A stretch of DNA of 51,161 nt from the UHGV virus genome UHGV-0110138; one strand, 5' to 3'. A program made the position numbers and the translations under genes. Below the pieces are notes generated by a model. That model worked only from the letters and a program-made list of their open reading frames with translations, was not told the origin of the DNA and made no database searches. Origin of the DNA: a virus. Every line of letters starts with the position of its first letter. Within the stretch, counting starts at the first letter, position 1. This document shows positions 7,616-47,190 of this stretch, in pieces.

Positions 7616-8983
7616 TTAAGCAAATCTTAATTGTTCCTGTGTATCATCAATGCTCATGTTCGGCATTCTCTCACCGACTTTCAGATACGAACAATTCGCT
7701 TCTACAAGTTTCTGCGCCATTATCGGCACTACACTGTTTCCAATTCTCGCTACTTGTTTCGCAATCGGGTAATTCTTCCAGTTATAGTCCCTGTTAATGA
7801 TGTAATCCTTTGGAAATCCTTGCATCAGTTTTAATTCTTCTGGTTTCAGCATCCGAAGAAAAATGTCTGATATGATGTATTTCTCGCCCTTGATATCCAG
7901 GATTACATTCACCAGTCCAAAACGGTCTTTCGTTGTGATCGTATCAAGCGGTCTATTCAGTGTTTGTCCGCACCCACCGCCGTAATACTTAATCAGAAAT
8001 GCTGATACCAAACCGAAGTGACCCGGAGATGTCGTAATTGTATGTAATGGTTCATCACGCCCCTGTCCAATCCCCGTCTTGTAATATTTCGTGATAAATG
8101 CTGTCACAAGTCCGTATCTATTCGATGTATCAATCGTCTTGATCGGTTCTGTCAAAAGCTGTCCTCTTGAATCACCGGCTCTTGTCTCTCCGTGATATTG
8201 AATGATGTATGCCAGTGCATCTTTGTTTTTCACGATATACGGAGATTCTGCATCGATGATGTATTTCTTGATACCGTTTGCAATTCTCTTCTGTGTAGCT
8301 TCTGCAAGTGGTTTCTTCCGCTCAAATATCGAACTTCCAAGGTCTGACCAGTCAATGTAATCTCCACAAGGTTTCCACTTCTCAAATCCGATGCCGTCTG
8401 CACTGTGAGTCTGCTTTGGGAATCTGATTTCCCGTCCATCTCTACGGAATATCGCATACCATCTCTTTCTTGTGGTCGGTGCTCCGTAATCTGCAGCTAC
8501 CAGCTCTCTACTACCAAAACGGTACCCGAGGCTCTTCATTGCTGTAATGAATTTTTTATAATCCTCACCTTTTTTCTCCGGTATCGGATAACCTTTTTCG
8601 TCCAACGGACCCCACTGTTGTATTTCTTCTACGTTCTCCATAAGAATTACATCCGGCAGAATTGCTTTTGCGTGCTTATATACCGCCCACGGAAGTATCC
8701 TCAAGCCTTTCTCTCTTGGCTTACCGCCCTTTGCCTTGGAATGACTTGTACAATCTGGGCTCGCCCACATAAGAGCCACATGCTGTCCTTTTATATACTT
8801 CTTCAAGTTAACCTTGAAAATATCCTCCGTCAGATGAAGTGTGTCCTGATGGTTCGTCTTATGCATCAATATGGCATCTGGATCGTGGTTGATTGCTATG
8901 TCTACCGGTCTACCGAGTGCCATCTCAATTCCTACGGATGCACCCCCGCCACCGGCAAAGGCGTCTATAATTAAATCTTTCAT
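7616..8983 (-). CDS. DNA (cytosine-5)-methyltransferase-like, phage multispecific type
   Basis: Motif I FAGGGGASVG, ENV motif (LMENVEE) and C-terminal GNSV motif (RIGNSVVPIM) are present. Three tandem TRD-like repeats (P..TI.T...GLV.AF..KYY). Motif IV reads SPDCTSHS instead of the canonical PCQ. Confidence 0.8.
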   Translation of the reverse strand: MKDLIIDAFAGGGGASVGIEMALGRPVDIAINHDPDAILMHKTNHQDTLHLTEDIFKVNLKKYIKGQHVALMWASPDCTSHSKAKGGKPREKGLRILPWAVYKHAKAILPDVILMENVEEIQQWGPLDEKGYPIPEKKGEDYKKFITAMKSLGYRFGSRELVAADYGAPTTRKRWYAIFRRDGREIRFPKQTHSADGIGFEKWKPCGDYIDWSDLGSSIFERKKPLAEATQKRIANGIKKYIIDAESPYIVKNKDALAYIIQYHGETRAGDSRGQLLTEPIKTIDTSNRYGLVTAFITKYYKTGIGQGRDEPLHTITTSPGHFGLVSAFLIKYYGGGCGQTLNRPLDTITTKDRFGLVNVILDIKGEKYIISDIFLRMLKPEELKLMQGFPKDYIINRDYNWKNYPIAKQVARIGNSVVPIMAQKLVEANCSYLKVGERMPNMSIDDTQEQLRFA

Positions 8984-10036: not shown

Positions 10037-10657
10037 TTACTCCTTTACCGCATATCTGCTTTCGCATATTGCAAAAAACTTTCCGTCATGCTCTTCGCAA
10101 TATCTTTTCAGCACTTCTTCGCAAAAATCATGATTGTCAATTTCCTCTTCGTGAACAACCGTTCTTTTTTCGTCTATTACAAGGCAACAGGTTTTCTTCA
10201 CAACTTCAATTTCTTTCTTTTCATGGTCTTTCTTGTACTGTTTGAGGACTTCGATATATCGTTCAGGATGTTTTACCGCTAATTCATTACAGGTAATACC
10301 CGTGCCATTGTTATAGGCACTCAGCTTGCAACGACTGCAACTCCTTCCCTCACACATTTCGCCTCTAAGTATAATTGCTTCTTCCGCTGTCAGTTCATCC
10401 TCTACTAATCCTTCAAGCATTCCGTCTGTCCACTTATAGTCATCTTCTACAACTTTGTAGTAATCATCATGCACGGATGTAATCGTTACGATCTTTTTCT
10501 TTAACATTTCATCAACTGCATATAAACCACCATACAGCACCGTATTTTTTAAATCACTCCTGACTCTTACCTTGTCTCCAACTTTGTATTTCATTTCGTG
10601 CCTCTCTTTCTCAGTTTTTCTAACAGCTTCTTTCTCTTCTGTTTCTTCTCTTTCCAT
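10037..10657 (-). CDS. hypothetical protein (Cys-rich, acidic)
   Basis: 206 aa. Confidence 0.5.
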   Translation of the reverse strand: MEREETEEKEAVRKTEKERHEMKYKVGDKVRVRSDLKNTVLYGGLYAVDEMLKKKIVTITSVHDDYYKVVEDDYKWTDGMLEGLVEDELTAEEAIILRGEMCEGRSCSRCKLSAYNNGTGITCNELAVKHPERYIEVLKQYKKDHEKKEIEVVKKTCCLVIDEKRTVVHEEEIDNHDFCEEVLKRYCEEHDGKFFAICESRYAVKE

Positions 10658-13029: not shown

Positions 13030-13338
13030 TTATAGCCAAGACTTTCCGAATACCTCTCTGAACTCTTCTCTGCTGCCTATATGCTCTTCAAAATGTTTCT
13101 GAGCCATCTGCTTAAGCTGTAAGTCCAGCCCGTGATTCGGATTGTCATGTACGCTCCCCTTCTGAAATTCATGTAAATACGGTGCTAGGGGAATCACATA
13201 TCCGTATCTCTCTGATAGCTTTCGTCTGCTTCCGTAGAAGATATGGTGAATATGTGGATATGGATAACCGGTGAAGTAACAGTGGTTCATATCTTCTGTG
13301 AATACACTTTTCAATCGTTTAGCCAATATCCACACCAT
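13030..13338 (-). CDS. hypothetical protein, possible HNH-like nuclease
   Basis: HCYFTG...HIHHIF...HD pattern; weak. Confidence 0.35.
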   Translation of the reverse strand: MVWILAKRLKSVFTEDMNHCYFTGYPYPHIHHIFYGSRRKLSERYGYVIPLAPYLHEFQKGSVHDNPNHGLDLQLKQMAQKHFEEHIGSREEFREVFGKSWL

Positions 13339-18916: not shown

Positions 18917-18931
18917 TTGCGAGGTTATTAT

Positions 18932-20449
18932 ATGAGACCTAGCCAATATCATTATATAAAAAGAATGCTCGTACACGGAATGTATAACCGTAAGCGAGCA
19001 AAAATAGCTGCTAAAAACAGAAAGAAACAGTTAAAGAGACTTCATAAAGAAGAAAAGAGACAGCGGAAGTTGGCTCGTAAAGCATGGAAAAAAGCACAGC
19101 CGAAGAAAATACACTCACCTACATTCTATAGGAACTGGGCGATAATCGCTGCTATTGTATGGCTCTTTGGTTGGATGTACTCTGTAAATGAGTATCGTGG
19201 ATTGGATATTGTTCTATCGCTGATTTCAGGAGAAATATTATTTGCGTTATATCCGTTCTATAAATTCCTGAAGACAAGGGAGAAGGAAATACCTGACCTA
19301 GAATTTAATAAGGATGTAATGCTTTGTCCTCGGTGTGGAGCAGAAATTGACGCAAAATGTAAGTTCTGTACGCAATGCGGTTTTCAAATCGTAAGGGATT
19401 TTCATTTTCCTCCGGAAGACATTTCTGTAGATAATCAATCTGTGATGCAAGCAGCTCCCGTGGAACGAGAAACAGAGCAGGAACAGGAACAGGAACAGGA
19501 ACAGGAACAGGAACAGGAACAGGAACAGGAACAGGATATTATGCCAGACACAGAAGAAAAATCAACCGATGACGACAAAATTATTATATGTCCAGTCTGT
19601 GGAACTAAGAATTTAAAGACATACTCTTTCTGCATAGAATGTGGTATATGTCTCAACAATCCAGAAAACTTTCGTAAATGTATAAGCCATCCAGTTTGCA
19701 CTCAGAATCAAGAAAAGTCAGAGAGTCAGCCTAAAGAAACTACGGATAATCAGATTCAAAATATCGTTATCGAAAACGGAGATGTATATTTAGCTAACGC
19801 AGCTCTGATGGCCACAGACAGAGATAGCATCGGAATAGGGAAAATTCAACGTGAATACAAGGTTGGATTTAACCGTGCTGCTCATATCATGGATCAGTTA
19901 TATGAAATAGGGATAGTTGGTGAAGAAAACGGAACCAGTCCTAGAAAAGTTTTAGTTGATAAAGAAAAATGCAAGGAGATTCTTAAAAATGCTACGATTT
20001 CCGAATGTCCGGTGCCTAGTTATGAACCAAAACCTACAGATGTTTACGCTGAATTTTGTACAGCATCATGTGAATTCGATCCAAGCCAAAATTTCAAATA
20101 TCAAGACGATGAAGGAAATATCAGATATAATGATAAACGCTTCGTACAGTCAAATAGCAGTGTTGACTTGCCCAACAAATTAGATACATCCAAAATAAAC
20201 GAAGCAAAAAAGAAAATTCTTGAACTATATGAATCAGTAGGTATTCAAATAAAAATTGATTCCTACTCCGTATTGCAAGCCTATTTACTTTTTCAAATTA
20301 TTCCAGTTGGAAAAACGCGGATAAAAGCAATACAATCTTTGCAAAAAGATATTGAAGTTGCTTTGGGAATGAACTCTATAATAAACGTAATGTCTAAAAA
20401 AGGATACGTTGGATTATTACTGCCACTCCAATATTTTTTATTAATATAA
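18932..20449 (+). CDS. membrane protein with two zinc ribbons, an (EQ)n tract and an FtsK-gamma-like winged-helix domain
   Basis: CPRCG..CTQCG and CPVCG..CIECG zinc ribbons; TM helix WAIIAAIVWLFGW; IGIGKIQREYKVGFNRAAHIMDQLYEIGIVGEENGTSPRKVLV resembles the FtsK gamma domain. The ORF track starts at a TTG at 18917; an ATG at 18932 has a better RBS. Confidence 0.6.
   Translation: MRPSQYHYIKRMLVHGMYNRKRAKIAAKNRKKQLKRLHKEEKRQRKLARKAWKKAQPKKIHSPTFYRNWAIIAAIVWLFGWMYSVNEYRGLDIVLSLISGEILFALYPFYKFLKTREKEIPDLEFNKDVMLCPRCGAEIDAKCKFCTQCGFQIVRDFHFPPEDISVDNQSVMQAAPVERETEQEQEQEQEQEQEQEQEQEQDIMPDTEEKSTDDDKIIICPVCGTKNLKTYSFCIECGICLNNPENFRKCISHPVCTQNQEKSESQPKETTDNQIQNIVIENGDVYLANAALMATDRDSIGIGKIQREYKVGFNRAAHIMDQLYEIGIVGEENGTSPRKVLVDKEKCKEILKNATISECPVPSYEPKPTDVYAEFCTASCEFDPSQNFKYQDDEGNIRYNDKRFVQSNSSVDLPNKLDTSKINEAKKKILELYESVGIQIKIDSYSVLQAYLLFQIIPVGKTRIKAIQSLQKDIEVALGMNSIINVMSKKGYVGLLLPLQYFLLI
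19481..19534. repeat. (GAACAG)9 hexanucleotide microsatellite encoding (EQ)n
   Basis: Nine perfect tandem hexamers inside 18932-20449. Confidence 0.9.
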
Positions 20450-21374: not shown

Positions 21375-21542
21375 ATAAAATAAAACCGCTCCTGTTGGCG
21401 CAGGAACGGTTGATACACAACTCCGAAGAGCAGTGCGAATTATATGAACAATAATATTGTATCATCTTCGGAGCAGTCAATCAATCAGAACTGTTGTTCT
21501 ATTGTATGGCTGTTATTTTTATACTTAAAAGGAGATGATTAT

Positions 21543-22646
21543 ATGGCAACAGCTAAGAAGTTACCTTCCGGATCCTGGAGATGTCAGGTATTCAGCCACT
21601 ATGAAATTGTCTTAGATAAAAACGGAAAACCTGTTATTGATCCGAAAACGAAGAAACAGAAACAGAAAAGAATCTATAAGTCTTTCACTTGTGATGATCC
21701 ATCGGCAAGAGGAAAAAGAAAAGCTGAAGCAATGGCTGCTGAATGGGCAGACAACAAAGAAATCAAGAAAGATGAAGAAGTACAAATGACTTTCGGTGAT
21801 GCACTAGAAAAGTACATCCAGGAACGGTCCGCTGTCCTCTCACCGTCCAGCATCAGAAAGTACAAGAGTATGCAACGTAATTGCATGGTACCGCTCAAAG
21901 AGTATCAGCTAAAGGAAATCACACAAAGCGTAATTCAAAAGGTGATTAATAAGGCATCTACAGAGCTGTCACCTAAGTCTGTTCGTGACATGAATGGACT
22001 GATCAGCGCGGTAATGAAAAGATTTCGTCCGGGAATTGTAATCAATATCACTCTTCCAAAAAAACTCAGGAGCAACATTTACATTCCTACAGAAGTGGAC
22101 ATTAAGAAGATTATTCGCGCATCAGAAGGAACTATCACGGAAGTGCCAATTCTCCTCGCAGCGTTTGGAGCTATGCGAAGAGGTGAGATCTGTGCATTAC
22201 AGAAGTCCGACATCAAGAATCACACGATACACGTTACAAAAACAATGGTTATGAATGATGAGGGCGAATGGATTGTGAAAGCACCTAAGTCTTATGCTGG
22301 TGACAGATATGTGAATTATCCATCATTCGTAATCGAGAAGTTTTTGGAACTTTCAACCGACACTGTAAACATGAATCCGAATACATTAACAACATCGTTT
22401 GGAAATCTCCTTAAGAAATTAGAGATACCTCACTTCCGATTCCACGACTTAAGGCATTACAATGCTTCTGTTCAACATGCGCTAGGAATACCGGATGCGT
22501 ATATCATGCAATCTGGTGGGTGGGGAAATGATTCGGTACTGAAAGAAGTCTACCGTCACACTCTTCCGGACATGGAAGATAAAATGAATAAGATTGCAAT
22601 CGACTATTTTGAGTCTATGCAACACGAAATGCAACACGAAGCATAA
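21543..22646 (+). CDS. int: tyrosine integrase
   Basis: C-terminal catalytic residues (R...HDLRH...Y: FHDLRHYNAS ... VYRHT). RBS AAAGGAG upstream of the ATG at 21543. Confidence 0.85.
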   Translation: MATAKKLPSGSWRCQVFSHYEIVLDKNGKPVIDPKTKKQKQKRIYKSFTCDDPSARGKRKAEAMAAEWADNKEIKKDEEVQMTFGDALEKYIQERSAVLSPSSIRKYKSMQRNCMVPLKEYQLKEITQSVIQKVINKASTELSPKSVRDMNGLISAVMKRFRPGIVINITLPKKLRSNIYIPTEVDIKKIIRASEGTITEVPILLAAFGAMRRGEICALQKSDIKNHTIHVTKTMVMNDEGEWIVKAPKSYAGDRYVNYPSFVIEKFLELSTDTVNMNPNTLTTSFGNLLKKLEIPHFRFHDLRHYNASVQHALGIPDAYIMQSGGWGNDSVLKEVYRHTLPDMEDKMNKIAIDYFESMQHEMQHEA

Positions 22647-24774: not shown

Positions 24775-24896
24775 TCTCCTTAAATGCTTATAGTTCTACC
24801 TTAATGTTAATACAGCTAATTATGATATTTATGCAATCTTAAGATAATTGTACTGGATTTTTAGTGGATGATTGTACCCATATTGAGTCATAGATG

Positions 24897-25202
24897 AAAT
24901 AGTAACACGATACTAAAATCAAATGGTCTGCGATATTATTCTGATCATGTTTATAGTGAAGAAAAAACTGTACGGTTAACATTTGACGGTCACTTTGCTG
25001 GAATACTTATTGTAGATCAAAATAAATATACAAACATATATGCCGTAGGTGCTAGTTCTGGAATCAAACAAATAAGTATTGGAAATGCAGATTCTCCTCA
25101 GCCATCAAAAAGTGGTAATACGATAAGTATACCTATGCGTGCATGGTCATCGTTCATACTCATAACTAATGATAATAGTGTTATCAAGTTATAAAATAGT
25201 AA
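24897..25202. repeat. 306-bp direct repeat copy 1 (identical to 25701-26006), bounded by AAATAGTAA sites
   Basis: Read by eye: identical over the full length, offset exactly 804 bp. Confidence 0.9.
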
Positions 25203-25700
25203 GTCATTTTTTACCGTAGATTCTGGTGGTTGTATATATACAGTTAAACTTAGAACATTCACAAATATTTTATTTATTGCAACGGTTAGATCACTATATG
25301 TGTATTCAAATGGATACCTGACAACTGCAATTGAGGATGGAAAGTTTTCAAAATGCGAAATTTCTAAAGATTATCTTACCGTTACTATTACTTCTGTATG
25401 CGATAAAGAAAGGTTTTCGTTGGGAATAATTGGTATGAAAGATTTTGAGGTTAAAAGGATAAAATAGTAATAAACAAGGCGTGTTAAAAACAATTGCCAA
25501 ACAATACTCAACAAATGAACAAGGTGTCATTACCACGGAAATAAATAGAACAGCTGTTGTTGTATCTTGCAGAAGTAACAACGCAATTGTCGATCCTTTT
25601 GTAATATATGGAAACGATTATTGGAATGCAAAGATCCAGAATATTAGTGGTAACATACTAAAGAACACAAATGTATATGTTGCATTCTTCTATTTTAAAT

Positions 25701-26006
25701 AAATAGTAACACGATACTAAAATCAAATGGTCTGCGATATTATTCTGATCATGTTTATAGTGAAGAAAAAACTGTACGGTTAACATTTGACGGTCACTTT
25801 GCTGGAATACTTATTGTAGATCAAAATAAATATACAAACATATATGCCGTAGGTGCTAGTTCTGGAATCAAACAAATAAGTATTGGAAATGCAGATTCTC
25901 CTCAGCCATCAAAAAGTGGTAATACGATAAGTATACCTATGCGTGCATGGTCATCGTTCATACTCATAACTAATGATAATAGTGTTATCAAGTTATAAAA
26001 TAGTAA
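25701..26006. repeat. 306-bp direct repeat copy 2
   Basis: Identical to 24897-25202. Confidence 0.9.
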
Positions 26007-26740
26007 TGGATTTTTTATAAAACATGTTGATAAGTCAGATGCAGATAATATCACAAAACCAGGACTATACAGATGTTCGAATTTAATAGGTGTTACAGGA
26101 ATCAACTTTGGATACATGTTTGTTTTTTCACTATACAATGATAGGCGATATATCTTGCAAGTTTTACATGATGCAAACTCTTCTGATTTAAGACGGCGAA
26201 TTCGCATTAGCTCCAAATGGACGGACTGGATCAAAATGTAAATCACATCAATTACATTGCTCTAGAAAATAGTAAGCGTATCCCACAGTTTGAAGTTCGA
26301 GGCATTTACAATAGCTCCACCCAAACAATGACATTTTCGATTCCTCAACTAAAAAATTTGCATGGTCTCGTAATGTTTAAAACAGAGTTATCAAATAACG
26401 GAAGGCATCTTAGATTGTCTTTAACATCTTGGAATGAAAAAGTTATATCTCAGTGCGTGCAGAATGCAATTACAGAACCAACCGCAACAGGATATATGGA
26501 AACAGGAACGTATAAACTTGAGTATAAAAGCAAAAATTTTCCTAGCAATATGTCCGGCAAATGTGTCGTATTTTTAATTTCAGATGAAATATAAAAGAGA
26601 TTTTCTAATCTCCGATTTCCTCTATTACAGGAGCAAGTCTAAAACAGCACAATAACAAGCGTATCAGCAATATTTTTAGGTATAGCAAACAAGCCATCGA
26701 AAGGTGGCTTTTAAAAAATCAATATTGATGCTAGAAAAAG

Positions 26741-27751
26741 CTATGCTATATACCGTCTAAATGATGCCTTAACGTTATCTTCGTTGACAGTAACGTACAT
26801 CATTGTGGTATCAGGCTTCTTGTGACCAGCATAGGCTTGAATTTCTTGCAGCGGTATACCTCGACTTCCAGCATCCGTGAGTAGAGTTCTTCGAAACTTA
26901 TGCGGATGCGTGTGGATGTCGGACTTTTTACCTAGTTTCGACAACATTGACCATATAGCTTCCTTCCCCATGCGATTGTTTGGCTTCCGATTCGATACGA
27001 ATAACGCTGGATTCATGTCAGTTCGTGTCATAAGGTACTTCTTAAGGTGATAGGCACATTCATCCGTAAGATAGACTTTACGCTCTTTCTTACCTTTTTC
27101 ACCATAGATGATTACTTCCTTGTTGCCCCAATCAATGTCATTACGATTGAGCATCACAACTTCACCGATACGTGCTGCGGTACTGTACAGAAACTCCATA
27201 ATTGCAACGTCTCTTTGACATTCCGCATTACATCTAAGATGTTCTCTTTCTGCGGACGTAAACGGCTTTTTGATGCGCTGTGGCACTTTCATGTGCTTAA
27301 TACGTCTCATTGGATTCTTGGCTATAAATCCTTCGTCAGAGAGCCAACCAAAGAATGATGAGAAGTATCGTCTGATGGAATCCATATAGGATATGGACAC
27401 TTTTCTTGTCTCTTGGTACATTGCGAGATAATATCTAATGTCATTGGTGGTAATGTCCTCGAACCTCTTGTGCAGATAGTCTACTAGCTTGGTCACACAG
27501 TCCACATAGCGGTCAATCGTGCCTTGTGAGCAGTTCTCCAAGCGTTTACTGGCTATGAATAACTTTAGAATCTTATCCCAGTGCGCTTGACTTGTCACAA
27601 GCGAAGTGCATTCCTCTTGCAACTTCACTCCGTGGAATGAAATGTACAGCACATTCTCAAGTTTGTGTAGCTGTTCGTCAGTAAGTTCCTCTTGCATCAT
27701 GTTTACAACATTTTTGATGATAATATTAATGTCTTTTTCCATAAAAAACAC
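26741..27751 (-). CDS. Xer/Rci-like tyrosine site-specific recombinase (no phage-integrase arm-binding domain)
   Basis: Core-binding-like N-terminal region. Catalytic ARIGEV (R), HPHKFRRT (H-x-x-R), GHKKPDTTMMYV (H...Y). Confidence 0.8.
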   Translation of the reverse strand: MFFMEKDINIIIKNVVNMMQEELTDEQLHKLENVLYISFHGVKLQEECTSLVTSQAHWDKILKLFIASKRLENCSQGTIDRYVDCVTKLVDYLHKRFEDITTNDIRYYLAMYQETRKVSISYMDSIRRYFSSFFGWLSDEGFIAKNPMRRIKHMKVPQRIKKPFTSAEREHLRCNAECQRDVAIMEFLYSTAARIGEVVMLNRNDIDWGNKEVIIYGEKGKKERKVYLTDECAYHLKKYLMTRTDMNPALFVSNRKPNNRMGKEAIWSMLSKLGKKSDIHTHPHKFRRTLLTDAGSRGIPLQEIQAYAGHKKPDTTMMYVTVNEDNVKASFRRYIA

Positions 27752-28021
27752 CCCTTTCTAAGCCAATTATGACTCAAAAAGAGGTGAATTTACACACTTT
27801 TGTTAGTTGATGAAATCGGAGATTGCTAATTATCAGATTTGTTTTTTAGTAGTCCATGTTTGACCATTATCACTACTGATTCTGAACATCAATACATCAT
27901 TAGTATTGTATATGAGTTCGTGAAGTGTGTTTTCCCATTTCACAATAAAAGAGATTGATGTGCCAGTTGTTTTGATTGTTAGATCTTTGTATGTCCCTAT
28001 TTTGACATAATCCTTTAAGCT

Positions 28022-28037
28022 GTTACTATTTTATAAC
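28022..28037. repeat. inverted copy of the GTTATAAAATAGTAAC site, 14 nt past the stop of 28051-28530
   Basis: Reverse complement matches 25188-25202 and 25992-26006 (15 of 16) and the AAATAGTAAC at 24897 and 25701. Confidence 0.7.
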
Positions 28038-28050
28038 CGTATTGGAGTTA

Positions 28051-28530
28051 CTAAATTGGATACGTTACAGCACAATGATTATAAGATGATGTATTGTTCC
28101 ATGAAACATCACCATTTGTTCTTATACAAAGAGCAGCACCATTTTTGGAATAGTTACTTGTGTAAAGGTCTTTTTGTGGAATCAAATTGTTAGGCAATTG
28201 ACCTAATACTGTACCATCAATAATTTCTGAATTACTGTTAATGACTACTGTTACGTAACCATTTTTCAGTCTGTAATAAACATAATGTTGATCATTTAAT
28301 GATACCCATCCGCTATCTGCTTGATTACTATTTAATTCATTAACTGCCCCGATCAAAGTCTTGTCAGTTGTTCCTAACTTTGCGATAACTGCCGTAGTCA
28401 TCTTATCGACAACATAATCCCATATCTTGCTCATTAAGGTACGCTTATTTGCCTTGACGTCTGCGTCAAGAATCATTAATTCGTCATTGTCTTCCAGTGT
28501 TTCTTTTGTAGTGTAGTCTGTCCATTTCAT
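28051..28530 (-). CDS. tail-fibre-tip / receptor-binding-like protein
   Basis: 159 aa, beta-rich Asn/Ser/Tyr-rich C-terminal half. RBS AAGGAG. Last gene of the tail cluster. Confidence 0.45.
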   Translation of the reverse strand: MKWTDYTTKETLEDNDELMILDADVKANKRTLMSKIWDYVVDKMTTAVIAKLGTTDKTLIGAVNELNSNQADSGWVSLNDQHYVYYRLKNGYVTVVINSNSEIIDGTVLGQLPNNLIPQKDLYTSNYSKNGAALCIRTNGDVSWNNTSSYNHCAVTYPI

Positions 28531-29084: not shown

Positions 29085-29293
29085 GATTCTTCTCCTAGTA
29101 AAATTTTTAACGCTGTGTCTGTTTCGCTAACGAAAATATCTTCTACATTGTCCGGCTCGATAATTTCATCATCAGCTTCAACAATAATCATTTCTCTGTC
29201 TTTACATTTCATTACTTCTTTTTTCATTACATTTGCTCCTAACTGTGCCATGCTGCCTTTACGAGAATTCCATTTTTGAATGTCATATAACAA
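29081..29293 (-). CDS. small acidic hypothetical protein
   Basis: 70 aa. Confidence 0.35.
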   Translation of the reverse strand: MLYDIQKWNSRKGSMAQLGANVMKKEVMKCKDREMIIVEADDEIIEPDNVEDIFVSETDTALKILLGEES

Positions 29294-32200
29294 CCAGAAT
29301 AATCTTGTTTTGTCCCATCACTTTCCTTGAAACGTTGCACAAAATTCATAGTTCCAGTAATTCCTCCGTCACCAAACTTAGCGTTCAGCAATTTGTAATT
29401 ATGCATATCAATGTTACATCCCATGTTTATAGAGTCCGCTGTAAAAGATGAAAATGATTTACGAGCATATGTCATTTTCATAGCATAGCTAGTAGATGAA
29501 GGTGTGTCTTTCGATGCCCACGTCATATAGTGACCACCGTCGTCAAGGTCAAAATTCAATCCTCTTATAGCAAAATTTGTGTCGGCAAACCCGTTGGTTC
29601 CTATCAGCCCAACCTTGTTTGTTTCGTACCAATATTGGTTGTATCCGGCAGTCATATACACTGTTCTGAGTATATTTGTAGACCTGATTGTTCCATCAAT
29701 CTCAGCACCACTACATTTTAAATATCCTGTTGGTGACATACTTGAGCCTTCCGACTTCCAGCTAATGCTTTTTGCTTGCATTCGGATAGAGTCTGCTTTC
29801 TGCTCGATGATGGATTCTACATCTTCTGAGGATACCTTTAATTTGATCTTGTCTTTGAGAACCTCGATATCAGCCATAGCCTTATTGGCAACTGTATCAT
29901 CTGTGTACTTCGTTGCAAGCACCCAGTCAGAAGAATTATAATTTCCACTGGCTCTTGCGGTTTTGCAACGCATCAGATCACCTGTGCTTCCTTGCGTCCA
30001 CAAGTCTCCAACATCGTAAGGTGGCACAGGAGTTGTAATAAAGTTTCTTCTCTTACCGTCTGCGGTATCTTGCGCCTTTGATGCTGTTTCCATCGCAGAT
30101 ACGATGTCTGCATCTTTCACTCTCACCCACTGATAAGATGTATCGACTTTCATATAGCGATAAGTGAAACCTTTGCTCTTCCAGAAGAAGAGGTCACCAA
30201 CGTGCTTCTGTCTTTCGTAAGCTATAGTCCACTCAGATGCCGGATGGTTTGAATTCGTAGGCTCATAATCGTAATAGTACGTATCAATCTTTCCATCAAT
30301 CTGATTTTGGATATCTTCAATTTTCGGATCATAAATGTTTTCGATGAAGTCCGTTACTGTAGAATCGTCTGTATAATTATCTTTCTTCTGCCAATCAGAC
30401 GCAACGAATTCTCCGCTGTCACGGTCAACTACACATGTAAGGATATCTGTACCGGTAAACCACGCATCACCAACGTTATAAGGTGGCTTCGGCTGTGTCA
30501 CATAGATGGATGACTTACCGTCAATCTCATCAAATACAGAGTCCGGAACTGGCATTTCTTCCCAATTTCCGCTTCTGTAGATGTATTCATCACCAGTTTT
30601 GGAATTCTTCCACAAGTCACCCTCATGAGTCGCTTTCTCGGTTTCCACAGTGATTGTGATAGTTTTTCCACTAACATCTAAGATTTCATTCCCGTTTACA
30701 TCGCAAAGGGGCTGTGTTTCTTTTCCAGTCCAATTAAGTGACGGGTCAGTAGGTTGGAACCAGGTTTCTATCTTCTGATCGATCTGATTCTTGATATTCT
30801 CAAGGTCAGCAGCATAAGTATTCTTAACAAAGTTATTGATTGCGGAATCATCTGTGTACTTGGTAGCCTTAACCCAATCAGATGCGACATACTCACCGTT
30901 CTGACGTGATGTCACGCAACGCATAAGATCTCCATTTGTGCCTTGTACCCACAAATCATCCTTGTCATAAGGCGGATAAGGTGTCACGCTAAAGACACGC
31001 TTCTTTGTAATAGCAAGGTTCTTAGCAGCCTTTGCTTCTGCATCACTTAGTATTGACCAAGATGCGCCATTCCAACGTTGTGTGGTCTCTTCTTTTGAGT
31101 TGTACCACAAGTCTCCTACATGCTTCTGCTTTAGCTCTTCCGTAGTCCACGTAGCTGACGGATCAGTAGCTTGATTGTATGTCTCAATCTTGCCATCAAT
31201 CTGATTCTGCAAGTCTTTATTGACCGTTTCCAGTTCTTTTTGCACTTCGTTGGCTCTTGTATCATCCGTGTACTTAGATGCCTTTTCCCAGTCATCCACA
31301 GCGTATTCAGAAGAATCACTCTTAGGTACTCGGCATCGCATGATGTCACCATTTTCGCCCTGCATCCATAAATCGCCAATGTCATAAGGTGGCTGAGGAG
31401 TCACTACAAATACTCTTCGCTTGTGGTCTGCGGTATCCTGTGCTTTCTCCGCCACTGCAAGTGCTTTCGTAATGTCTGTATCCTGTACAAGTTGCCACTT
31501 CCATGTTGCTTCATCTTTCATGAACCGATAGGCAAATCCTTTTGACGACCAATAGAAAAGGTCTCCAAGATGCTTTTCACGTTCCGTTGATGTTGTCCAT
31601 AAAGAAGCTGGCTCATTCTGTAATGTTGGTTCGTAATCGTAATACCATGTTTCTATCTGACCATCGATCTGACTCTGTAATTCTGCAATCTTTGGATCAT
31701 ATACCGCAGAAATGAAGGTATTCAATCCACTATCATCCGTATACTTAGTCTTCTTCTTCCAATCGGATTTCACACACTTTCCAGTGTCTCTACTTTCTAC
31801 GCAAGTGAGTAGTTCCTGTGTATCTGCGTCAAACCACAAGTCTCCTACTCTGTAAGGTGGTACTGGCTCGTTGATGAATGTCTGCGCTTTTCCATCAATC
31901 TCATCAAAGACTTCATCCGGAACTTGCATCTTCACCCAATGCCCGGACCGATAAATATACTCATCATTCGTAGACAGGTCTTTCCATAAGTCACCTTCGT
32001 GCTCTGACTTTAACTCTTCAAATAAGAGTGTTATTTCATTTCCGTTGACATCAAGGATTGGATTTCCGTCTATGTCGCACCAAGCTTTTTCAACAGTGAC
32101 TCCCCAATTCACCGATGGATCTATGTCCTGATACCATGTTTCAATTTTGTTCCGGACGGAGTTTTTAATCTCGTCCATATCTGTCTTGTAAATGTTGGTT

Positions 32201-33834
32201 ACAAAATCATCTACAATACCATTGGAAATATCTTCCACAGACTTACCGGTGATGGATATTGACTCTGCATTGATGGTAACTCGTCCTGTCTCCGTATCAG
32301 CATAGAATGTAATGTTTCCATTCTTATCTTTTACAGTGAGAGAACCTGAGTTGATATAATCAGCATTAATGCCGATAGCATACAAGATTCTTGTTATCAG
32401 GTCTCCTGTGAGGAATAATCCGTAAGGATACGTCTTACCGCCATCATTTGATATACCAATGGCTTCAGATGTAACTTTGATTACATTCTTGGACTCTTCT
32501 ACTGTCGGCTTATCATGGATGTATGTAATCATACTTCCGTCCGGCTGTGGTGATTCTGTCGAATACATTCCAGATGCATTCTCAAGTGTCTTATTCAGAT
32601 TCTCAACAGCTGCTTCAAAGTCCGTCTTATTCTGCTTGATTTCCTTATTAGCTTTTTCATATACCTTTGTAGCTTCGCTATAATAAGTACTCTTTTGACG
32701 TTCCGGATCTTTGATTCCGCAAGAAAACGAACTACTTCCGAGATAATTGAACTCGTTGGATGTGATAAATGTTGGATAAACTTTGTCTTTCCGGTCTACC
32801 ACGCAAGCCAAATCCATGAATTCGATCGTTGGATCAGGGAAGAATTCTCCACTAAAACCTCTCAGCTTAACTCCGATCAATACATCTCCAATCAGATTGA
32901 TTGCATCATCTTCATGTCCTTCAATAAGAGGATTCGTGATTTCAAGTGCATAATCATCTGTACCTCTTATTAAGATTGTACTCTCGTTTTCTACTTTCTT
33001 TGTGGTCGCAATTCCAGTGATTACAACAGGATCTGTGCTAATGTCCGGATCTGACTGATAGTCCATCAAAATGCTATAGCCAGCATCTTCCACTAAGTCA
33101 TCCCTATTTGTAATCTTCGATATTGCAGAAAAGTCGTAACTCTTAATAACAAGTGTTCCGTTCTGAATCACAGCATTACCAACGGCAAGCATTGCGATAT
33201 ATCCGATTACTTCTCGGCAAGTCACTTTTTCCGGAGCCTGTTCAATCACAAAATCATCGTTCTTAAACTTCGGACTTCCAAGCATGATATTACATGCACT
33301 GCACGCTTCTCTTAGAAGCTGTCCAGCTGTTGTTGGATAAGATAGCTTAGACGTGAAGTCTACATCTGCTTTGTACATTGAATCATAACCTACAAGTTCT
33401 ATCGTATCTCCAACCGCTGTTGGCTCAAGTACTGTAAATGTACCCTCGTTTAATCTCTCGATTCTTGATTTCGTCAGCATAATCGTGTTGCCATTGACAT
33501 CGAGAATTTCCCCACCTTTCACATCTCTCCATGCATCATAGCTTCTACTTTCGATGTCAACTTCAGTGAAGAGTGAAATCTGTGCATAGTAAAAATCATA
33601 CTTGGAAAATCTCTCATCGATGTTATCAATGACAAGCGTAACGGACTTGGAGAGAGCGGATCCCAGTGGGAATCCATCTCCTCCGTCTTCTGTGTATCCA
33701 TTACCGCTTATGAAGAAATCGTTATCCGAATCAAGTGTAAGCTTTTTGCCATTTTTCAGTGTGATCGATGCATAAGCATAAAACGGACCGCCTGACTTTA
33801 TGATGTTTTTAAATTCGTTGCTTACATTCTTCAT
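29239..33834 (-). CDS. tail-associated lysin / tail fibre protein (Tal-like, prophage-tail-endopeptidase-type N-terminus) with five internal repeats
   Basis: 1531 aa. N-terminus is typical of siphovirus tail-tip proteins. Five units of about 150 aa each carry the P(V/Q/K)PPY.(V/I/K)GD.W and G..GD.(M/L)RC motifs. Confidence 0.8.
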   Translation of the reverse strand: MKNVSNEFKNIIKSGGPFYAYASITLKNGKKLTLDSDNDFFISGNGYTEDGGDGFPLGSALSKSVTLVIDNIDERFSKYDFYYAQISLFTEVDIESRSYDAWRDVKGGEILDVNGNTIMLTKSRIERLNEGTFTVLEPTAVGDTIELVGYDSMYKADVDFTSKLSYPTTAGQLLREACSACNIMLGSPKFKNDDFVIEQAPEKVTCREVIGYIAMLAVGNAVIQNGTLVIKSYDFSAISKITNRDDLVEDAGYSILMDYQSDPDISTDPVVITGIATTKKVENESTILIRGTDDYALEITNPLIEGHEDDAINLIGDVLIGVKLRGFSGEFFPDPTIEFMDLACVVDRKDKVYPTFITSNEFNYLGSSSFSCGIKDPERQKSTYYSEATKVYEKANKEIKQNKTDFEAAVENLNKTLENASGMYSTESPQPDGSMITYIHDKPTVEESKNVIKVTSEAIGISNDGGKTYPYGLFLTGDLITRILYAIGINADYINSGSLTVKDKNGNITFYADTETGRVTINAESISITGKSVEDISNGIVDDFVTNIYKTDMDEIKNSVRNKIETWYQDIDPSVNWGVTVEKAWCDIDGNPILDVNGNEITLLFEELKSEHEGDLWKDLSTNDEYIYRSGHWVKMQVPDEVFDEIDGKAQTFINEPVPPYRVGDLWFDADTQELLTCVESRDTGKCVKSDWKKKTKYTDDSGLNTFISAVYDPKIAELQSQIDGQIETWYYDYEPTLQNEPASLWTTSTEREKHLGDLFYWSSKGFAYRFMKDEATWKWQLVQDTDITKALAVAEKAQDTADHKRRVFVVTPQPPYDIGDLWMQGENGDIMRCRVPKSDSSEYAVDDWEKASKYTDDTRANEVQKELETVNKDLQNQIDGKIETYNQATDPSATWTTEELKQKHVGDLWYNSKEETTQRWNGASWSILSDAEAKAAKNLAITKKRVFSVTPYPPYDKDDLWVQGTNGDLMRCVTSRQNGEYVASDWVKATKYTDDSAINNFVKNTYAADLENIKNQIDQKIETWFQPTDPSLNWTGKETQPLCDVNGNEILDVSGKTITITVETEKATHEGDLWKNSKTGDEYIYRSGNWEEMPVPDSVFDEIDGKSSIYVTQPKPPYNVGDAWFTGTDILTCVVDRDSGEFVASDWQKKDNYTDDSTVTDFIENIYDPKIEDIQNQIDGKIDTYYYDYEPTNSNHPASEWTIAYERQKHVGDLFFWKSKGFTYRYMKVDTSYQWVRVKDADIVSAMETASKAQDTADGKRRNFITTPVPPYDVGDLWTQGSTGDLMRCKTARASGNYNSSDWVLATKYTDDTVANKAMADIEVLKDKIKLKVSSEDVESIIEQKADSIRMQAKSISWKSEGSSMSPTGYLKCSGAEIDGTIRSTNILRTVYMTAGYNQYWYETNKVGLIGTNGFADTNFAIRGLNFDLDDGGHYMTWASKDTPSSTSYAMKMTYARKSFSSFTADSINMGCNIDMHNYKLLNAKFGDGGITGTMNFVQRFKESDGTKQDYSGCYMTFKNGILVKAAWHS

Positions 33835-34285: not shown

Positions 34286-37200
34286 TTAAGCCATCACAAA
34301 CGGATTCTTTCCTGTCTGCGTTCTCATGTTCTGTCCTTCCTCTAATACTGCCTTTGCAATCTGTCTGCGGTTTAGATATACAGGAACTTCAATTCTTCGT
34401 GAGCCGTTTCCGGTTTCTTCCCTAACAATCTTTCGGATAAGGTTCTCAGGTGCTTCAATGTTGTTCCCACTCTTCTGATCTCCAAGTACTGCCATGAATT
34501 CCTTGTTTGGTGGAATCACAGCACCTTGAGCTAAGTAAGGAATATGTGGTGCACTCCAATATCCGATATGAAATCCGAGTGACCTAACACCGGTCAAAGA
34601 TGTAACCCAGCTAGGAACTGATACATTTATTTTATTCAATGCTTTTGCAACTCCGTTTTGCATAATCTGTGCTGCACGAAGCAATCCATTCATGAGTCCG
34701 ATAATCAAGTTGATTGGTGACTTTATGACGGAAACCATGCCATTCCAAGCACCGCCGAGAATATTCTTGATTCCATTCCATGCCTGTTCCCAATCACCGG
34801 CAAGAACTCCATTTACAAAATTAACGATTCCTGTAAATATCTGTTTTACAGCTTCGAAGATGTTTTGAATGTTTATTAACCAACCATTCATGAAAACACC
34901 GATAACACCGAAAGTTTTCACCCAATCAACAGAAAATACACTATCCAGGAACTTTGCAATTGGTTTCAGTATCGAGTTTTGAATAAACTTAAAAATTGCA
35001 TTGATAGTATCTCGGAAAGAACCAACTATAGTCGAAATTCCGCTCATAGCTTTCTTCCAATCACCTGTGAATACCCCTGTCAAAAAGTCAATGATCCCAT
35101 TCAGCTGTTTCAGAATGCTAGCTACTACTTGGGCCACAGTCCCAGCAAAATCGAAGAGCGTTGATCCTAACCATTCAATAATAGGAGCAATAACAGGAAC
35201 AATATTTTCAACAATCCAATTCATGACAGGAATTAAAACACTGTTCCATAACCAGTTCAGTATATCTATCAATCTTCCGATTAATCCGATTGCTTGGTCG
35301 ATGGCATTTCCTACCGGTCCACTCATAATCTCTTGGAACTTCTGTCCTAACATATCAAGAATCGGTGCGATATACTGACTGTACATATCTAGGACTAAAC
35401 CAACAAATGTAGAGATGCTGTTCTTCGTATTCTGAATAAACGGTCCAATATGCTCATCATACAGTTCTGTGAGCTTATCAGCTACTTTATGGACTGTATC
35501 TTCGATAGCCTGTGTTACTGTTTCAATCGGTTTCAGCGTGTCATTGATTGCATTGATAATCTTGTCTTTGTTCTCAATAATCGGTCCTGTGATAAAGTCA
35601 ATCACATCTTTTGAAAAGTTTGTCGCAAGGAGAATGACCTCTCCGAACGCTGTGGTAAATATGCCAATAATATTGCCAGTAATGTTCTGTGCTGTCTGTG
35701 ATCCGAATGTCTGTTGGAAGATTTCTGCGATTGTTGCACTGAAGTTTCCGATGATTGTCATAATCTCAGAACCTAAGTCAAACATCCTAACAAGCCATTT
35801 CTTGATTCTGCCAGTATTCTCGGTTAAGTAACTTTCGATACCGCCTACGATATTTTCTGCTATCGTGAGTCCAATTGAAGCAAATGAGCCTACGATTTTA
35901 CCCATATTATAGATAAACAATCTAGCGAATCTCTTGGCTGCCTTCCGCACATCTTCATCTGTAAAGATATCTTGGATATGCTCTCCGATAGACTTTAAGT
36001 CTTTCTTGAGTTCCTCAAGTACTGGCTTATAATCTCCAAGTCCGTCCCAGAACCCATCCACAAAGATGTCTCTGATCTGTTTCAGCTTGTCCAGTACAGT
36101 ATCAAGTAGTGATGCGAACTTATTGTCAATCGGTACTTCTTCAAATAACGGTCCAGATCCAGCTCCTCCACCACCACCTCCGGATCCACCAGGACCACTT
36201 CCAGAGTTCTGTTTGTCCATTCGGTTGATATCATCAAGTGGTGATAAGTAATCTTCCGCAGCTTCCGCAGCTTCCTTTGTTCCGTCTGCTGCATCTTTCG
36301 CACCGCTTGCTGTATCCTTAAGACTTCCGGCATAATCTTTCTGTACTGCGATTGCTTTCGTGTATGTACTCTTTCCGGACAGGAATGAGAAGAACATACT
36401 TACATAGCTTGCAGCTGTCGAAAGCATATCAATGAACTTGCTTAAGATTGGTGCTACTACACTTAGAATCGGTGCAAATGCTGTTGCTAGGCTATTCTTG
36501 AGCGTTTCAAGACTGCTCCACAACATTGAAATGCTACTATTTGTGCTACTTGAGTACTGTGCAAGGTTTGTAAAGCCATCTTTGATAGCATTGATTGCAG
36601 CCGAGAATGCTCTGAATGCTACGCTCATTAATAGTGACATTCCAAGCATTCTTCCAATGCTGAGTTTCGCACCATTCGCAGCCTTTCCAGTTTTTGCAAT
36701 AGACTTTGACGCTCTTTCACTTTCGCTGGCAAGTTTACGTTGTGCCGGTGCTGCACTCATCAATTTTTGCTTGTATTCGTCCACACTGCCTTTTACGGAA
36801 TTGTACGATGTGTGGAGTCGATTGTTCATATCAGCAAGCTTTCTTTCTTCTGCTTGCAATGTCCGCATACTGGCAGCGGCTTCTTGTGTCTTTGAACCAA
36901 GTGTAAATGCTCCACCAGATGCTTCTAAATCTGCTAATTCTGCTTTCGCATATTTGATCTCATTCTCTAGTTCTTCAATGTCATACTGCATCTTCTTAAA
37001 AGATGAGCTGTTCTTTTTACCGCCAGTAGCAAGGAATCTTTCCTGTGCGGATTCCAGTGAACTGAGTTTCTGTGTAGCTCTGTCAATCTGAGCCTGAATC
37101 TCTCTGTATTCCTCTGTTGGAATCTTCTGTTCACCATATTCAGCTATTTTCTTCTTAAGGTTTGAAACCTTCTGTTCCTGTGCAGCATATTCTTGATTCA

Positions 37201-37372
37201 GCTTGGAGAATGAGTCTGCTTGTTTGTTGAGTGCTGTCTTAGCTTTAGAACCCATGTCCTCGACAGAGTTTGCCATTCTTCTGACAGCTGCTTCAACTTC
37301 TCTGCTTCCGGCTTTCATGCCGTCAGCGTTAATCTCTGTGTCAATTATGATATAGCCGTCGGCTTGTGCCAT
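34286..37372 (-). CDS. tail tape measure protein
   Basis: 1028 aa. Long coiled-coil N-terminal region, a Gly-rich segment (SGSGPGGSGGGGGGAGSGP), and multiple hydrophobic helices. Confidence 0.85.
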   Translation of the reverse strand: MAQADGYIIIDTEINADGMKAGSREVEAAVRRMANSVEDMGSKAKTALNKQADSFSKLNQEYAAQEQKVSNLKKKIAEYGEQKIPTEEYREIQAQIDRATQKLSSLESAQERFLATGGKKNSSSFKKMQYDIEELENEIKYAKAELADLEASGGAFTLGSKTQEAAASMRTLQAEERKLADMNNRLHTSYNSVKGSVDEYKQKLMSAAPAQRKLASESERASKSIAKTGKAANGAKLSIGRMLGMSLLMSVAFRAFSAAINAIKDGFTNLAQYSSSTNSSISMLWSSLETLKNSLATAFAPILSVVAPILSKFIDMLSTAASYVSMFFSFLSGKSTYTKAIAVQKDYAGSLKDTASGAKDAADGTKEAAEAAEDYLSPLDDINRMDKQNSGSGPGGSGGGGGGAGSGPLFEEVPIDNKFASLLDTVLDKLKQIRDIFVDGFWDGLGDYKPVLEELKKDLKSIGEHIQDIFTDEDVRKAAKRFARLFIYNMGKIVGSFASIGLTIAENIVGGIESYLTENTGRIKKWLVRMFDLGSEIMTIIGNFSATIAEIFQQTFGSQTAQNITGNIIGIFTTAFGEVILLATNFSKDVIDFITGPIIENKDKIINAINDTLKPIETVTQAIEDTVHKVADKLTELYDEHIGPFIQNTKNSISTFVGLVLDMYSQYIAPILDMLGQKFQEIMSGPVGNAIDQAIGLIGRLIDILNWLWNSVLIPVMNWIVENIVPVIAPIIEWLGSTLFDFAGTVAQVVASILKQLNGIIDFLTGVFTGDWKKAMSGISTIVGSFRDTINAIFKFIQNSILKPIAKFLDSVFSVDWVKTFGVIGVFMNGWLINIQNIFEAVKQIFTGIVNFVNGVLAGDWEQAWNGIKNILGGAWNGMVSVIKSPINLIIGLMNGLLRAAQIMQNGVAKALNKINVSVPSWVTSLTGVRSLGFHIGYWSAPHIPYLAQGAVIPPNKEFMAVLGDQKSGNNIEAPENLIRKIVREETGNGSRRIEVPVYLNRRQIAKAVLEEGQNMRTQTGKNPFVMA

Positions 37373-45911: not shown

Positions 45912-45983
45912 TCGGAACGGGAGGTATCGAACCTCCGACACGCTGGATATAAGCCAGTTGCTCTACCACTGAGCTACGTTCCG
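45912..45983 (-). tRNA. tRNA, anticodon UAU (Ile, AUA-reading) by manual fold
   Basis: Acceptor CGGAACG/CGTTCCG, D arm GCTC-AGTGGTA-GAGC, anticodon arm ACTGG-CTTATAT-CCAGC (one A-C mismatch), T arm GGAGG-TTCGATA-CCTCC. 72 nt. Confidence 0.65.
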
Positions 45984-46714
45984 TTAGCAGGTGGACAGTA
46001 ATAAAACCACCTCTGCTACGGTTCTTTGACAGTACGAAGAAAATAATAGTGAACATTGTAATAACACTGTGACTATCGTGCAAAAATGTGAATATTAAAT
46101 CCTTGACAGGAACTCCGCAGCTAAAACCTGTCGGTTACAATTTTTTCAAACATAATTAGGTCTTCACCTTATTCAATCATGGTAAAAGTCATGTTCTGCC
46201 ACTGTGATGATAGGTCTGAGCTTTCGAGAGCGACTCTTGGCTTCCTACCACGGTCTAAGCACACACTGGATTGATACCAGTAAATTTTACGGTTCTTTCA
46301 GATTATTCTTGCTTAATGTTTTTCATATCGTCTTTTAAACACTTTATCAGAATTAAGAACTTGCCATACCGCTACTTTAACGAATCTCTTGTGTTATACT
46401 CCGATTTCTCAGATTCAAGGCAAATCAGCTTATTGAGAATTTCCAGTTAGTCCGTAGTCTCTCACACCACTCACATCACTGGATTATTTCTGCACCGCAG
46501 ATGTCTATTAATCACTGACCACAAGGATTCTGCATTTGACTTCTCTATGATGATACACTGCAAGGCATTGTTGACGGTTTCCATCTCCACCACCAAAATC
46601 ACTCCCAGTGGAAAGAATCAGCTTATCCAATATCTCGAACAAGCCTATCTCGTTACCATTGCATCTCGGCATGACTGAAAAATCACTCTTCACCGAGGTA
46701 ATCATATTTGAAAA

Positions 46715-46787
46715 TAGCCGTATAAGGATTCGAACCTTAATCTGCGTAAGGGGGAGTAACACCGCTTTACCATTAAGCTATACGGCT
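46715..46787 (-). tRNA. tRNA-like gene with non-canonical anticodon arm (best fit anticodon CCC, Gly), possibly a pseudo-tRNA
   Basis: Perfect acceptor AGCCGTA/TACGGCT, D arm GCTT-AATGGTA-AAGC, T arm TAAGG-TTCGAAT-CCTTA. The anticodon region GGTGTTACTCCCCCTTACG folds only with one extra nucleotide and one mismatch. Confidence 0.4.
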
Positions 46788-46851
46788 TCCAACTACACTG
46801 TAGTAAGGAAAAATTTGTTATGAAAAAGATCTCTCTCCGAGTTCCGGAGAA

Positions 46852-46925
46852 AGCTATCGTTCGGATTCGAACCGAAAACCTGTTGATTCGTAATCAACTG
46901 CTCTATCCATTTGAGCTATGATAGC
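46852..46925 (-). tRNA. tRNA-Arg (anticodon ACG)
   Basis: D arm GCTC-AAATGGATA-GAGC, anticodon arm GTTGA-TTACGAA-TCAAC, T arm TTCGG-TTCGAAT-CCGAA. Acceptor 6 of 7 paired. 74 nt. Confidence 0.65.
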
Positions 46926-47190
46926 TTAAGCATCGAGCGTGAACCAAGAAAAACCACTCGATGCATTATTTTAGGTGTTCCCGGGGAGATGACAAGAAAC
47001 CGGGAATAGGCCTGTCCCGGTTATGCTCCGAGTCTGCGTCCTACTAAGGAACAAGCCTTAACCGCCATCTGACGGTTAGTAGCAATATTTATAGTGCTGT
47101 ACATTGCACTGTCAAGGAATGAAAAACGAATGAACTTTTCGTCCTCAAGTACATAGTGCCGTATTCGCTTGCTTTCATTGTCCCCATAAT

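Follow-up and report, generated by a model that had tools for sequence, protein, structure and literature searches.

A probable shufflon of receptor-binding protein cassettes in a temperate siphovirus-like phage of gut Lachnospiraceae

Layout of the locus and its repeated sites

The viral genome UHGV-0110138 (51,161 nucleotides (nt); the whole stretch is referred to here as the window, and all coordinates are those of this full stretch) carries between 24.8 and 28.5 kb a gene for a small predicted receptor-binding protein (RBP), a gene for a Xer-like tyrosine recombinase, and an array of start-less gene segments (cassettes) lying on both sides of the latter. We analysed this region as a candidate shufflon, that is, a locus in which inversions would exchange the C-terminal part of the RBP. 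The array comprises eight start-less cassettes, seven of them distinct; cassettes A and B are in direct orientation relative to the constant N-terminal part of the RBP gene (Rc), and the remaining six are inverted beyond the recombinase gene. The initial annotation had found no gene with a credible start between 24775 and 26740, and this assessment stands, as the ORFs (open reading frames) listed there are pieces of cassette frames read from internal starts. Proceeding from the RBP gene towards the holin genes, the locus contains the following features (aa, amino acids).

28333..28530, minus strand: Rc, the constant N-terminal 66 codons of the RBP gene (MKWTDY...GAVNEL)
28325..28333, minus strand: expression-site crossover site AAATAGTAA, inside the gene 28051-28530, encoding N67-S68-N69 (GAVNEL-N-S-N-QADSGW)
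28051..28332, minus strand: cassette A, the one currently expressed, 93 aa and stop codon, predicted beta-sandwich head
27833..28031, minus strand: site and silent cassette B of 65 aa, directly oriented, just past the expressed gene
27804..27824: left arm of the recombinase-flanking inverted repeat (core AATCTCCGATTTC)
27749..27786, minus strand: hairpin of 17 pairs with a U-run, directly before the recombinase ATG, over the ribosome-binding site
26741..27742, minus strand: putative shufflon recombinase, a Xer-like tyrosine recombinase, 333 aa from the ATG at 27742 (336 aa if the GTG at 27751 is used)
26691..26710, minus strand: terminator-like hairpin 3' of the recombinase gene
26607..26627: right arm of the recombinase-flanking inverted repeat (core AATCTCCGATTTC)
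26267..26594, plus strand: site and silent cassette C of 108 aa, opposite in orientation to Rc
25998..26241, plus strand: site and silent cassette D, 80 aa
25701..25998, plus strand: site and silent cassette E, copy 2, 98 aa
25462..25702, plus strand: site and silent cassette F, 79 aa
25194..25467, plus strand: site and silent cassette G, 90 aa
24897..25194, plus strand: outermost site and silent cassette E, copy 1, 98 aa, adjoining the holin genes

The sequence AAATAGTAA has eight exact copies in the window, compared with 0.66 expected, and none of 100 shuffled sequences reached eight. All copies fall within 24897-28333 and none elsewhere in the window; six are on the plus strand (24897, 25194, 25462, 25701, 25998 and 26267) and two on the minus strand (28023-28031 and 28325-28333). 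The "at least five" repeats recognised initially are thus real and are not chance matches in AT-rich DNA, although the copies at 25462, 26267 and 28325-28333 had been overlooked. Behind each of the eight copies, and in register with it (AAT AGT AA.), an open frame extends for 65-108 aa, as had been proposed for the fragments noticed at first; the chance of an open frame of 65 codons is about 0.009 per site, with stop codons making up about 7% of codons.

The copy at 28325-28333 lies inside the RBP gene, and the fusion geometry, left unresolved by the initial annotation, is therefore settled: the 66-aa Rc is joined to cassette A, and the in-gene site is the coding junction. The site at 28023-28031, located 19 nt past the stop codon of the RBP gene and directly oriented, is that of silent cassette B. 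An AlphaFold2 model of the Rc-A protein contains helices at residues 29-52 and 57-68 followed by a beta-sandwich, with predicted local distance difference test (pLDDT) values of 80-90, and the N-S-N junction falls at the domain boundary, at the end of the second helix and ahead of the beta-sandwich. The model thus has an RBP-like fold, with the N-terminal helical stalk and the C-terminal beta-sandwich head of the TP901-1 type; Rc is predicted to serve as the stalk and as the module for attachment to the virion. A model of Rc joined to cassette F likewise contains a confident beta-sandwich (pLDDT about 90), without a specific structural match.

Cassette E is doubled, with 24897-25196 and 25701-26000 being 300-nt copies that are 100% identical. 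As such a duplicate cannot arise by inversion alone, occasional unequal or intermolecular recombination between sites is implied.

Cassette exchange among related loci

The IMG/VR database yielded 25 loci with a recombinase 70-100% identical to that of the window, as well as 163 stretches encoding relatives of Rc, and in public data Rc is common to 272 protein clusters. The related loci hold 8-13 cassettes each, and this variable number, together with the doubled cassette E, indicates that rarer duplication or deletion events also occur. From the loci fetched we obtained 135 distinct cassette peptides, which single-linkage clustering grouped into 59 clusters, at least three of them probable chance matches outside the arrays. 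Across these loci we gathered 86 distinct site contexts, defined by a match to AAATAG[TC]AA with an open frame after it. The core of the resulting 12-nt asymmetric consensus, AT-N-AAATAG-Y-AA (also written ATNAAATAGTAA; it encodes N-S-N/K), is invariant by construction; beyond it, conservation is confined to three upstream positions (A, T, then A, T or G), with none further out. All sites of the window lineage read AAATAGTAA, whereas in a lineage with a 93% identical recombinase all 13 of 13 read AAATAGCAA. Judged from these sequences, the split amounts to a concerted change inside each locus, and a crossover region demands sites that are uniform within a locus.

This 66-aa N-terminus occurs on more than 100 public proteins with differing C-termini. 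Using the natural 159-aa protein as the query, we found public predicted proteins that are exact in-frame fusions of Rc, at residue 66/67, to cassettes of the types A to F, namely to A (99%), B (P0035, 100% identical to B), C (P0052, of the C type, 74%), D (P0028, 98%, and P0118, 95%), E (P0045, 98%) and F (25 public proteins, the closest at 95-97%, with P0007/L050 having an Rc 100% identical and an F 95% identical). Rc is joined to other C-termini in 82 further public proteins. A concatenated query of Rc and all the cassettes gave P0001 alone, a 784-aa public fibre in which an N-terminus about 80% identical to Rc is accompanied by collagen-like repeats, a GDSL esterase and Big_2 domains, which makes Rc a portable, modular adaptor that is found on non-shufflon fibres too.

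Locus L050 has a recombinase and an Rc that are both 100% identical to those of the window, yet its Rc is fused to cassette F. Its order is Rc-F, two cassettes missing from the window, the recombinase gene, and then, inverted, B, D, G, E and one more. The same cassettes thus occupy different positions in different genomes: A is silent in L002, B lies inverted across the recombinase gene in L050, C is in direct orientation upstream of the recombinase in L003, and G is silent in both L050 and L005. The flank of Rc, agttaatgaatt, leads into different cassettes in L050, L005, L053, L010 and L165, and so does the outer flank of the array, gagtcatagatg, in L002, L003, L005 and L053. Breaks of blastn colinearity among related loci are all located at the sites. 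Two copies of one prophage from different samples, L165 and L166, differ by a 4289-bp inversion running from the site at 8805 (plus) to that at 13081 (minus), with the inverted segment 99.86% identical and the flanks 100% identical. L165 is a 700-kb contig of Mediterraneibacter faecis, one of several samples in which the exact protein P0086 marks a single prophage. The recombinase gene is opposite in orientation to Rc in L005, and among the 20 records with both genes, a few of which are one contig fetched twice, the two have the same orientation in 13 and opposite orientations in seven.

A further indication comes from incomplete sequences. Of the 19 contigs from IMG/VR that encode a close Rc (L051-L070 except for L053), eleven stop 8-76 nt past the Rc junction and, as repeats of 12-18 nt are below assembly k-mers, these ends point to more than one continuation after Rc in the respective samples. 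Short-read viral contigs of this phage group (L051-L070) end within tens of bases of the Rc junction, so that the shufflon appears to fragment assemblies of these phages systematically.

The initial annotation had also drawn attention to a resemblance between the KWTDW end of one fragment and the MKWTDY N-terminus of the expressed gene. The likeness of letters is real yet coincidental, with no colinearity break there in related loci, and we rejected this inverted near-repeat as a recombination site, given that no breakpoint falls on it. A W-x-x-W motif ends several unrelated cassettes.

A second phage family, represented in IMG/VR by contigs of about 80 kb (L071-L127), has an Rc 69-72% identical to that of the window and a simple two-cassette switch, in which a single inverted site (TAACACAT[TA]AAATAGTGA) lies 350-750 nt downstream. 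One and the same cassette is silent in L082 but is the expressed one in L084. A 32-36% identical recombinase is encoded nearby in some of these loci, and none within 6 kb in others.

Taken together, these observations make it very probable that the locus is a multiple-inversion shufflon exchanging the C-terminal, receptor-recognising head of a small TP901-1-type RBP in a temperate siphovirus-like phage of gut Lachnospiraceae. Starting from the present order, Rc-A-B-recombinase followed by inverted C, D, E, F, G and E, the Xer-like recombinase encoded in the middle of the array would recombine any two inverted sites. One inversion between the in-gene site and an inverted site would bring C, D, E, F or G into frame with Rc and would also flip the recombinase gene. 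Inversions between the remaining pairs of sites would re-order the silent cassettes, and cassette B would need two steps to reach the expression site. A lysogen population would then release virions with differing heads. We infer, rather than observe, the timing of recombinase action and an effect of the variants on host range.

The recombinase gene, its flanking repeat and other explanations

The gene at 26741-27751 had been identified as an Xer- or Rci-like recombinase lacking an arm-binding domain, and we agree on the family and on the missing domain. Its product, which probably starts at ATG 27742, combines PF00589 (4.5e-30) with SAM_4 (1.9e-13). Its best NCBIfam matches are XerA, XerC and XerD (the XerA-type model at 4e-58, under the model cut-off), with no Rci model, and it aligns with the XerA structure 4a8e from PDB (9e-27) at all the catalytic positions (R, HxxR, H and Y). 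No record matched the recombinase in a look-up of its exact sequence. The gene is found in every related shufflon locus. Distant homologues (33-39% identity, L026-L049) were screened for site arrays as well; repeated 11-mers in L026, L027 and L032 were discarded as cassette sites, being followed by closed frames and resembling terminator or promoter elements. We therefore claim an association with shufflons only for recombinases at least 70% identical.

An inverted repeat of its own flanks the recombinase gene in all lineages, with fixed inner ends situated 59-65 nt ahead of the start codon and 124-131 nt past the stop codon. The repeat is AATCTCCGATTTC in the window lineage and ACTCCCTATTTCAT in the lineage with the 93% identical recombinase. 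L165 and L164 differ by an inversion of the recombinase gene alone (1233 bp, 100% identity), which is bounded by a perfect 18-nt inverted repeat, ATACACTCCCTATTTCAT (10469-10486 and 11684-11701 in L165). The outer flanks of the repeat are exchanged when the window is compared with L050, and likewise when L167 is compared with L164, and recombination therefore takes place inside the repeat itself. Inversion of the recombinase gene by itself is seen in two lineages. In L004, L012 and L017 the repeat is lengthened to 76-96 nt because one cassette tail occurs on both sides. The reverse complement of the repeat (GATGAAATCGGAG or ATGAAATAGGGAG) has ATGAAAT in common with the cassette site and diverges after it; the repeat may represent a second class of site for the same enzyme, kept apart from the cassette sites by a different crossover sequence. 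The hairpin before the recombinase ATG is kept in the M. faecis prophage of L165, and its position suggests that it limits expression of the recombinase.

Tentatively, and with considerable doubt, one could see in the invertible recombinase gene, with its own inverted repeat and the hairpin over its ribosome-binding site, a second-tier switch, the two site classes sharing ATGAAAT as a binding half and being made orthogonal by their crossover sequences. If this were true, shuffling would be switched on and off by the direction in which the recombinase gene faces with respect to the late operon, or inversion of the gene would restore its expression once a large inversion had flipped it. The searchable shufflon papers contain no description of a self-regulating shufflon with a nested invertible recombinase cassette.

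The proposal that the local recombinase rearranges tail-fibre cassettes by inversion, made already in the initial annotation, thus finds comparative evidence as far as the inversions are concerned, while the identity of the catalyst is inferred from linkage. The inversions might be real and yet be catalysed by another enzyme, such as the host XerC/D or the phage integrase (21444-22646), with the local gene serving, for example, to resolve genome dimers. The local recombinase is indeed Xer-like, and homologues 30-32% identical occur without a cassette array between the tail and lysis genes of phiCp-D (which also has ParM) and TPELB_ph1. We nevertheless consider this improbable, as in every lineage at 70-100% identity the recombinase gene lies within the invertible array and is bracketed by an inverted repeat of conserved position that recombines. 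In addition, the site variant tracks the type of recombinase (AAATAGTAA with 98-100% identity, AAATAGCAA with 93%), two more distant loci breaking the pattern; the 12-nt site is unlike the dif site, and the canonical integrase differs in architecture. In the two cultured phages just mentioned, Clostridium phage phiCp-D (L161) and Terrisporobacter phage TPELB_ph1 (L163), the Xer-like gene is annotated as "integrase" and occupies the slot between the tail-fibre and holin genes.

Alternatively, the array might be a static graveyard of tail-fibre gene fragments, with the differences among genomes due to homologous recombination or horizontal exchange. Cassette content does vary among relatives, from 8 to 13 per locus and across the 59 clusters (including the probable false positives noted above), and this variation, together with the duplicated cassette of the window, shows that processes other than inversion act too. 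Such a scenario is very improbable, however, given that the sequence shared at the breakpoints is merely 12-18 nt, that identity across the inversions separating L165 from L166 and from L164 is 99.86-100%, with flanks that match perfectly, that each cassette retains an open frame in register with its site, and that the sites are homogenised within each locus. It is scarcely credible that the alternative arrangements and contig ends are artefacts of metagenome assembly at repeats, since, although the locus is where many contigs break off, the repeats, at 12-18 nt, are far below assembly k-mers and cannot alone cause mis-joins, the same junctions recur in independent ENA, NCBI and Logan assemblies, and in-frame fusion ORFs are present in dozens of independent records.

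Several points nonetheless weigh against the shufflon interpretation or limit it. The activity and site specificity attributed to the recombinase are deduced from linkage only, and the hairpin over its ribosome-binding site may leave it almost silent. Directly repeated sites should permit deletions as well as inversions, a question that applies equally to the Rin system described below. The inversions are known from comparison of genome with genome, and heterogeneity within the source population is predicted from it. No fusion of Rc to cassette G was found in public proteins, and the predicted Rc-G junction, searched in exact and degenerate form, had no match in IMG/VR and the JGI metagenomes. 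Finally, a Pfam search over 40 cassette representatives recognised a single domain, H_lectin (H-type lectin, 4.5e-9), and 39 of the 40 are without a domain at E < 0.01, so receptor binding is supported by fold for cassette A only.

Relation to known systems, genomic setting and significance

The novelty initially ascribed to a tail-fibre shufflon driven by a tyrosine recombinase was overstated. The nearest known system is the Rin shufflon, described from the prophages Bb423phi1, Bl157phi1 and Bl30698phi1 of Bifidobacterium breve and B. longum (Mavrich et al. 2018, PMC6109161) and reported in Eggerthella lenta prophages too (2022, PMC8778435); the concept is hence already published, and the locus is a Firmicutes variant of it. 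Both systems reside in temperate siphovirus-type phages and concern a TP901-1-like RBP with a constant N-terminus (Rc) and start-less variable cassettes (Rv). In both, a short asymmetric repeat stands ahead of each cassette (the 11-nt rix in Rin, 12 nt here), and the RBP gene contains one such site and is followed shortly beyond its stop codon by another in direct orientation. They also share the architecture of an armless Xer-like tyrosine recombinase separate from the phage integrase, and in both the inversions were deduced by genome comparison. The differences are as follows. The host phylum is Bacillota (Lachnospiraceae) rather than Actinobacteria, the sites are unrelated in sequence (ATNAAATAGYAA versus TTCCCTAACCC), Rc has 66 aa instead of 168, and the 8-13 cassettes per locus are two to three times more than the approximately five of Rin. 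Moreover, rin is situated at one end of its array, whereas here the recombinase gene lies in the middle, flips with large inversions and, having its own inverted repeat, inverts alone.

The Rci-driven shufflon of R64 and other IncI1 plasmids (sfx sites, pilV) is comparable in employing a tyrosine recombinase, multiple inversions, asymmetric sites conserved in part only, and a constant N-terminus with alternative C-terminal segments of an adhesin-like tip protein. Its target is, however, a conjugative pilus adhesin instead of a phage RBP, its sfx sites are 19 bp long and unrelated to the 12-nt site, rci lies outside the invertible segments, and NCBIfam gave no Rci model for the recombinase of the window. 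Host range is likewise switched by inversion of C-terminal tail-fibre segments in the Gin/G system of Mu, Cin/C of P1 and Min of p15B, the last being a multiple-inversion system with several cassettes. Those systems depend on serine invertases, a recombinational enhancer and Fis, whereas the sole recombinase found in 24.7-28.6 kb, the part of the window scanned exhaustively for the resolvase family, is a tyrosine recombinase. The hsdS shufflons of type I restriction-modification systems, with ivr of Streptococcus pneumoniae (CreX/PsrA) and hsd/vsa of Mycoplasma pulmonis (HvsR) as examples, resemble the present locus in that one gene is expressed and partial genes are silent and inverted, a tyrosine recombinase is encoded next to them, and short inverted repeats mark the domain boundaries; they differ in that the target is a cellular specificity subunit or a surface lipoprotein and the repeats lie within conserved coding regions. 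In the searchable literature on shufflons in phages of Firmicutes or Lachnospiraceae, subscription-only papers being outside the search, we encountered only Rin (from Actinobacteria) and serine-invertase systems.

The window as a whole looks like a complete temperate siphovirus-like genome. Early genes fill 1-21 kb; after the structural genes come two small ORFs, then the RBP gene and the cassette array, and past the array two holin-region genes, a GH25 endolysin gene and the integrase gene. The relevant features outside the locus are as follows.

29239-33834: 1531-aa tail protein
34286-37372: tape measure protein (terminase and portal genes are also among the structural genes)
21444-22646: phage integrase with SAM_3 and PF00589, separate from the shufflon recombinase and of other architecture

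Three tRNA genes, Ile(tat), Gly(ccc) and Arg(acg), lie inside the head and packaging region (45912-46926, minus strand). The plus-strand gene at 18917-20449, which adjoins the integrase gene, has a 510-aa product in which a zinc ribbon is combined with the gamma (7e-17) and alpha domains of FtsK. Activation of XerD at dif is a function of FtsK gamma; a link between this protein and the Xer-like shufflon recombinase is speculative. A megablast search with 10 kb of the window gave no match among GenBank phages. Species-representative genomes contained no near relative of the recombinase, the top match being one of 39% identity in a Lachnospiraceae metagenome-assembled genome, and the host assignment consequently rests on the M. 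faecis names of P0073 and P0086 together with L165. On these grounds the host is a member of the gut Lachnospiraceae (Bacillota).

To our knowledge, phage host-range determinants in gut Lachnospiraceae are almost unknown. With this locus, the range of tyrosine-recombinase RBP shufflons grows beyond Actinobacteria to include abundant gut Firmicutes, namely Mediterraneibacter and other Lachnospiraceae. What is new relative to Rin is the Firmicutes variant itself, whose arrays reach 13 cassettes and whose recombinase gene lies within the array and inverts separately. The compact recombinase, with its 12-nt site and apparently a second, orthogonal one, is a potential tool. The family is large in public data, and because short-read assemblies appear to be broken exactly at the locus, virome catalogues may be biased. 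Small swappable RBP heads on a 66-aa adaptor form a natural library.

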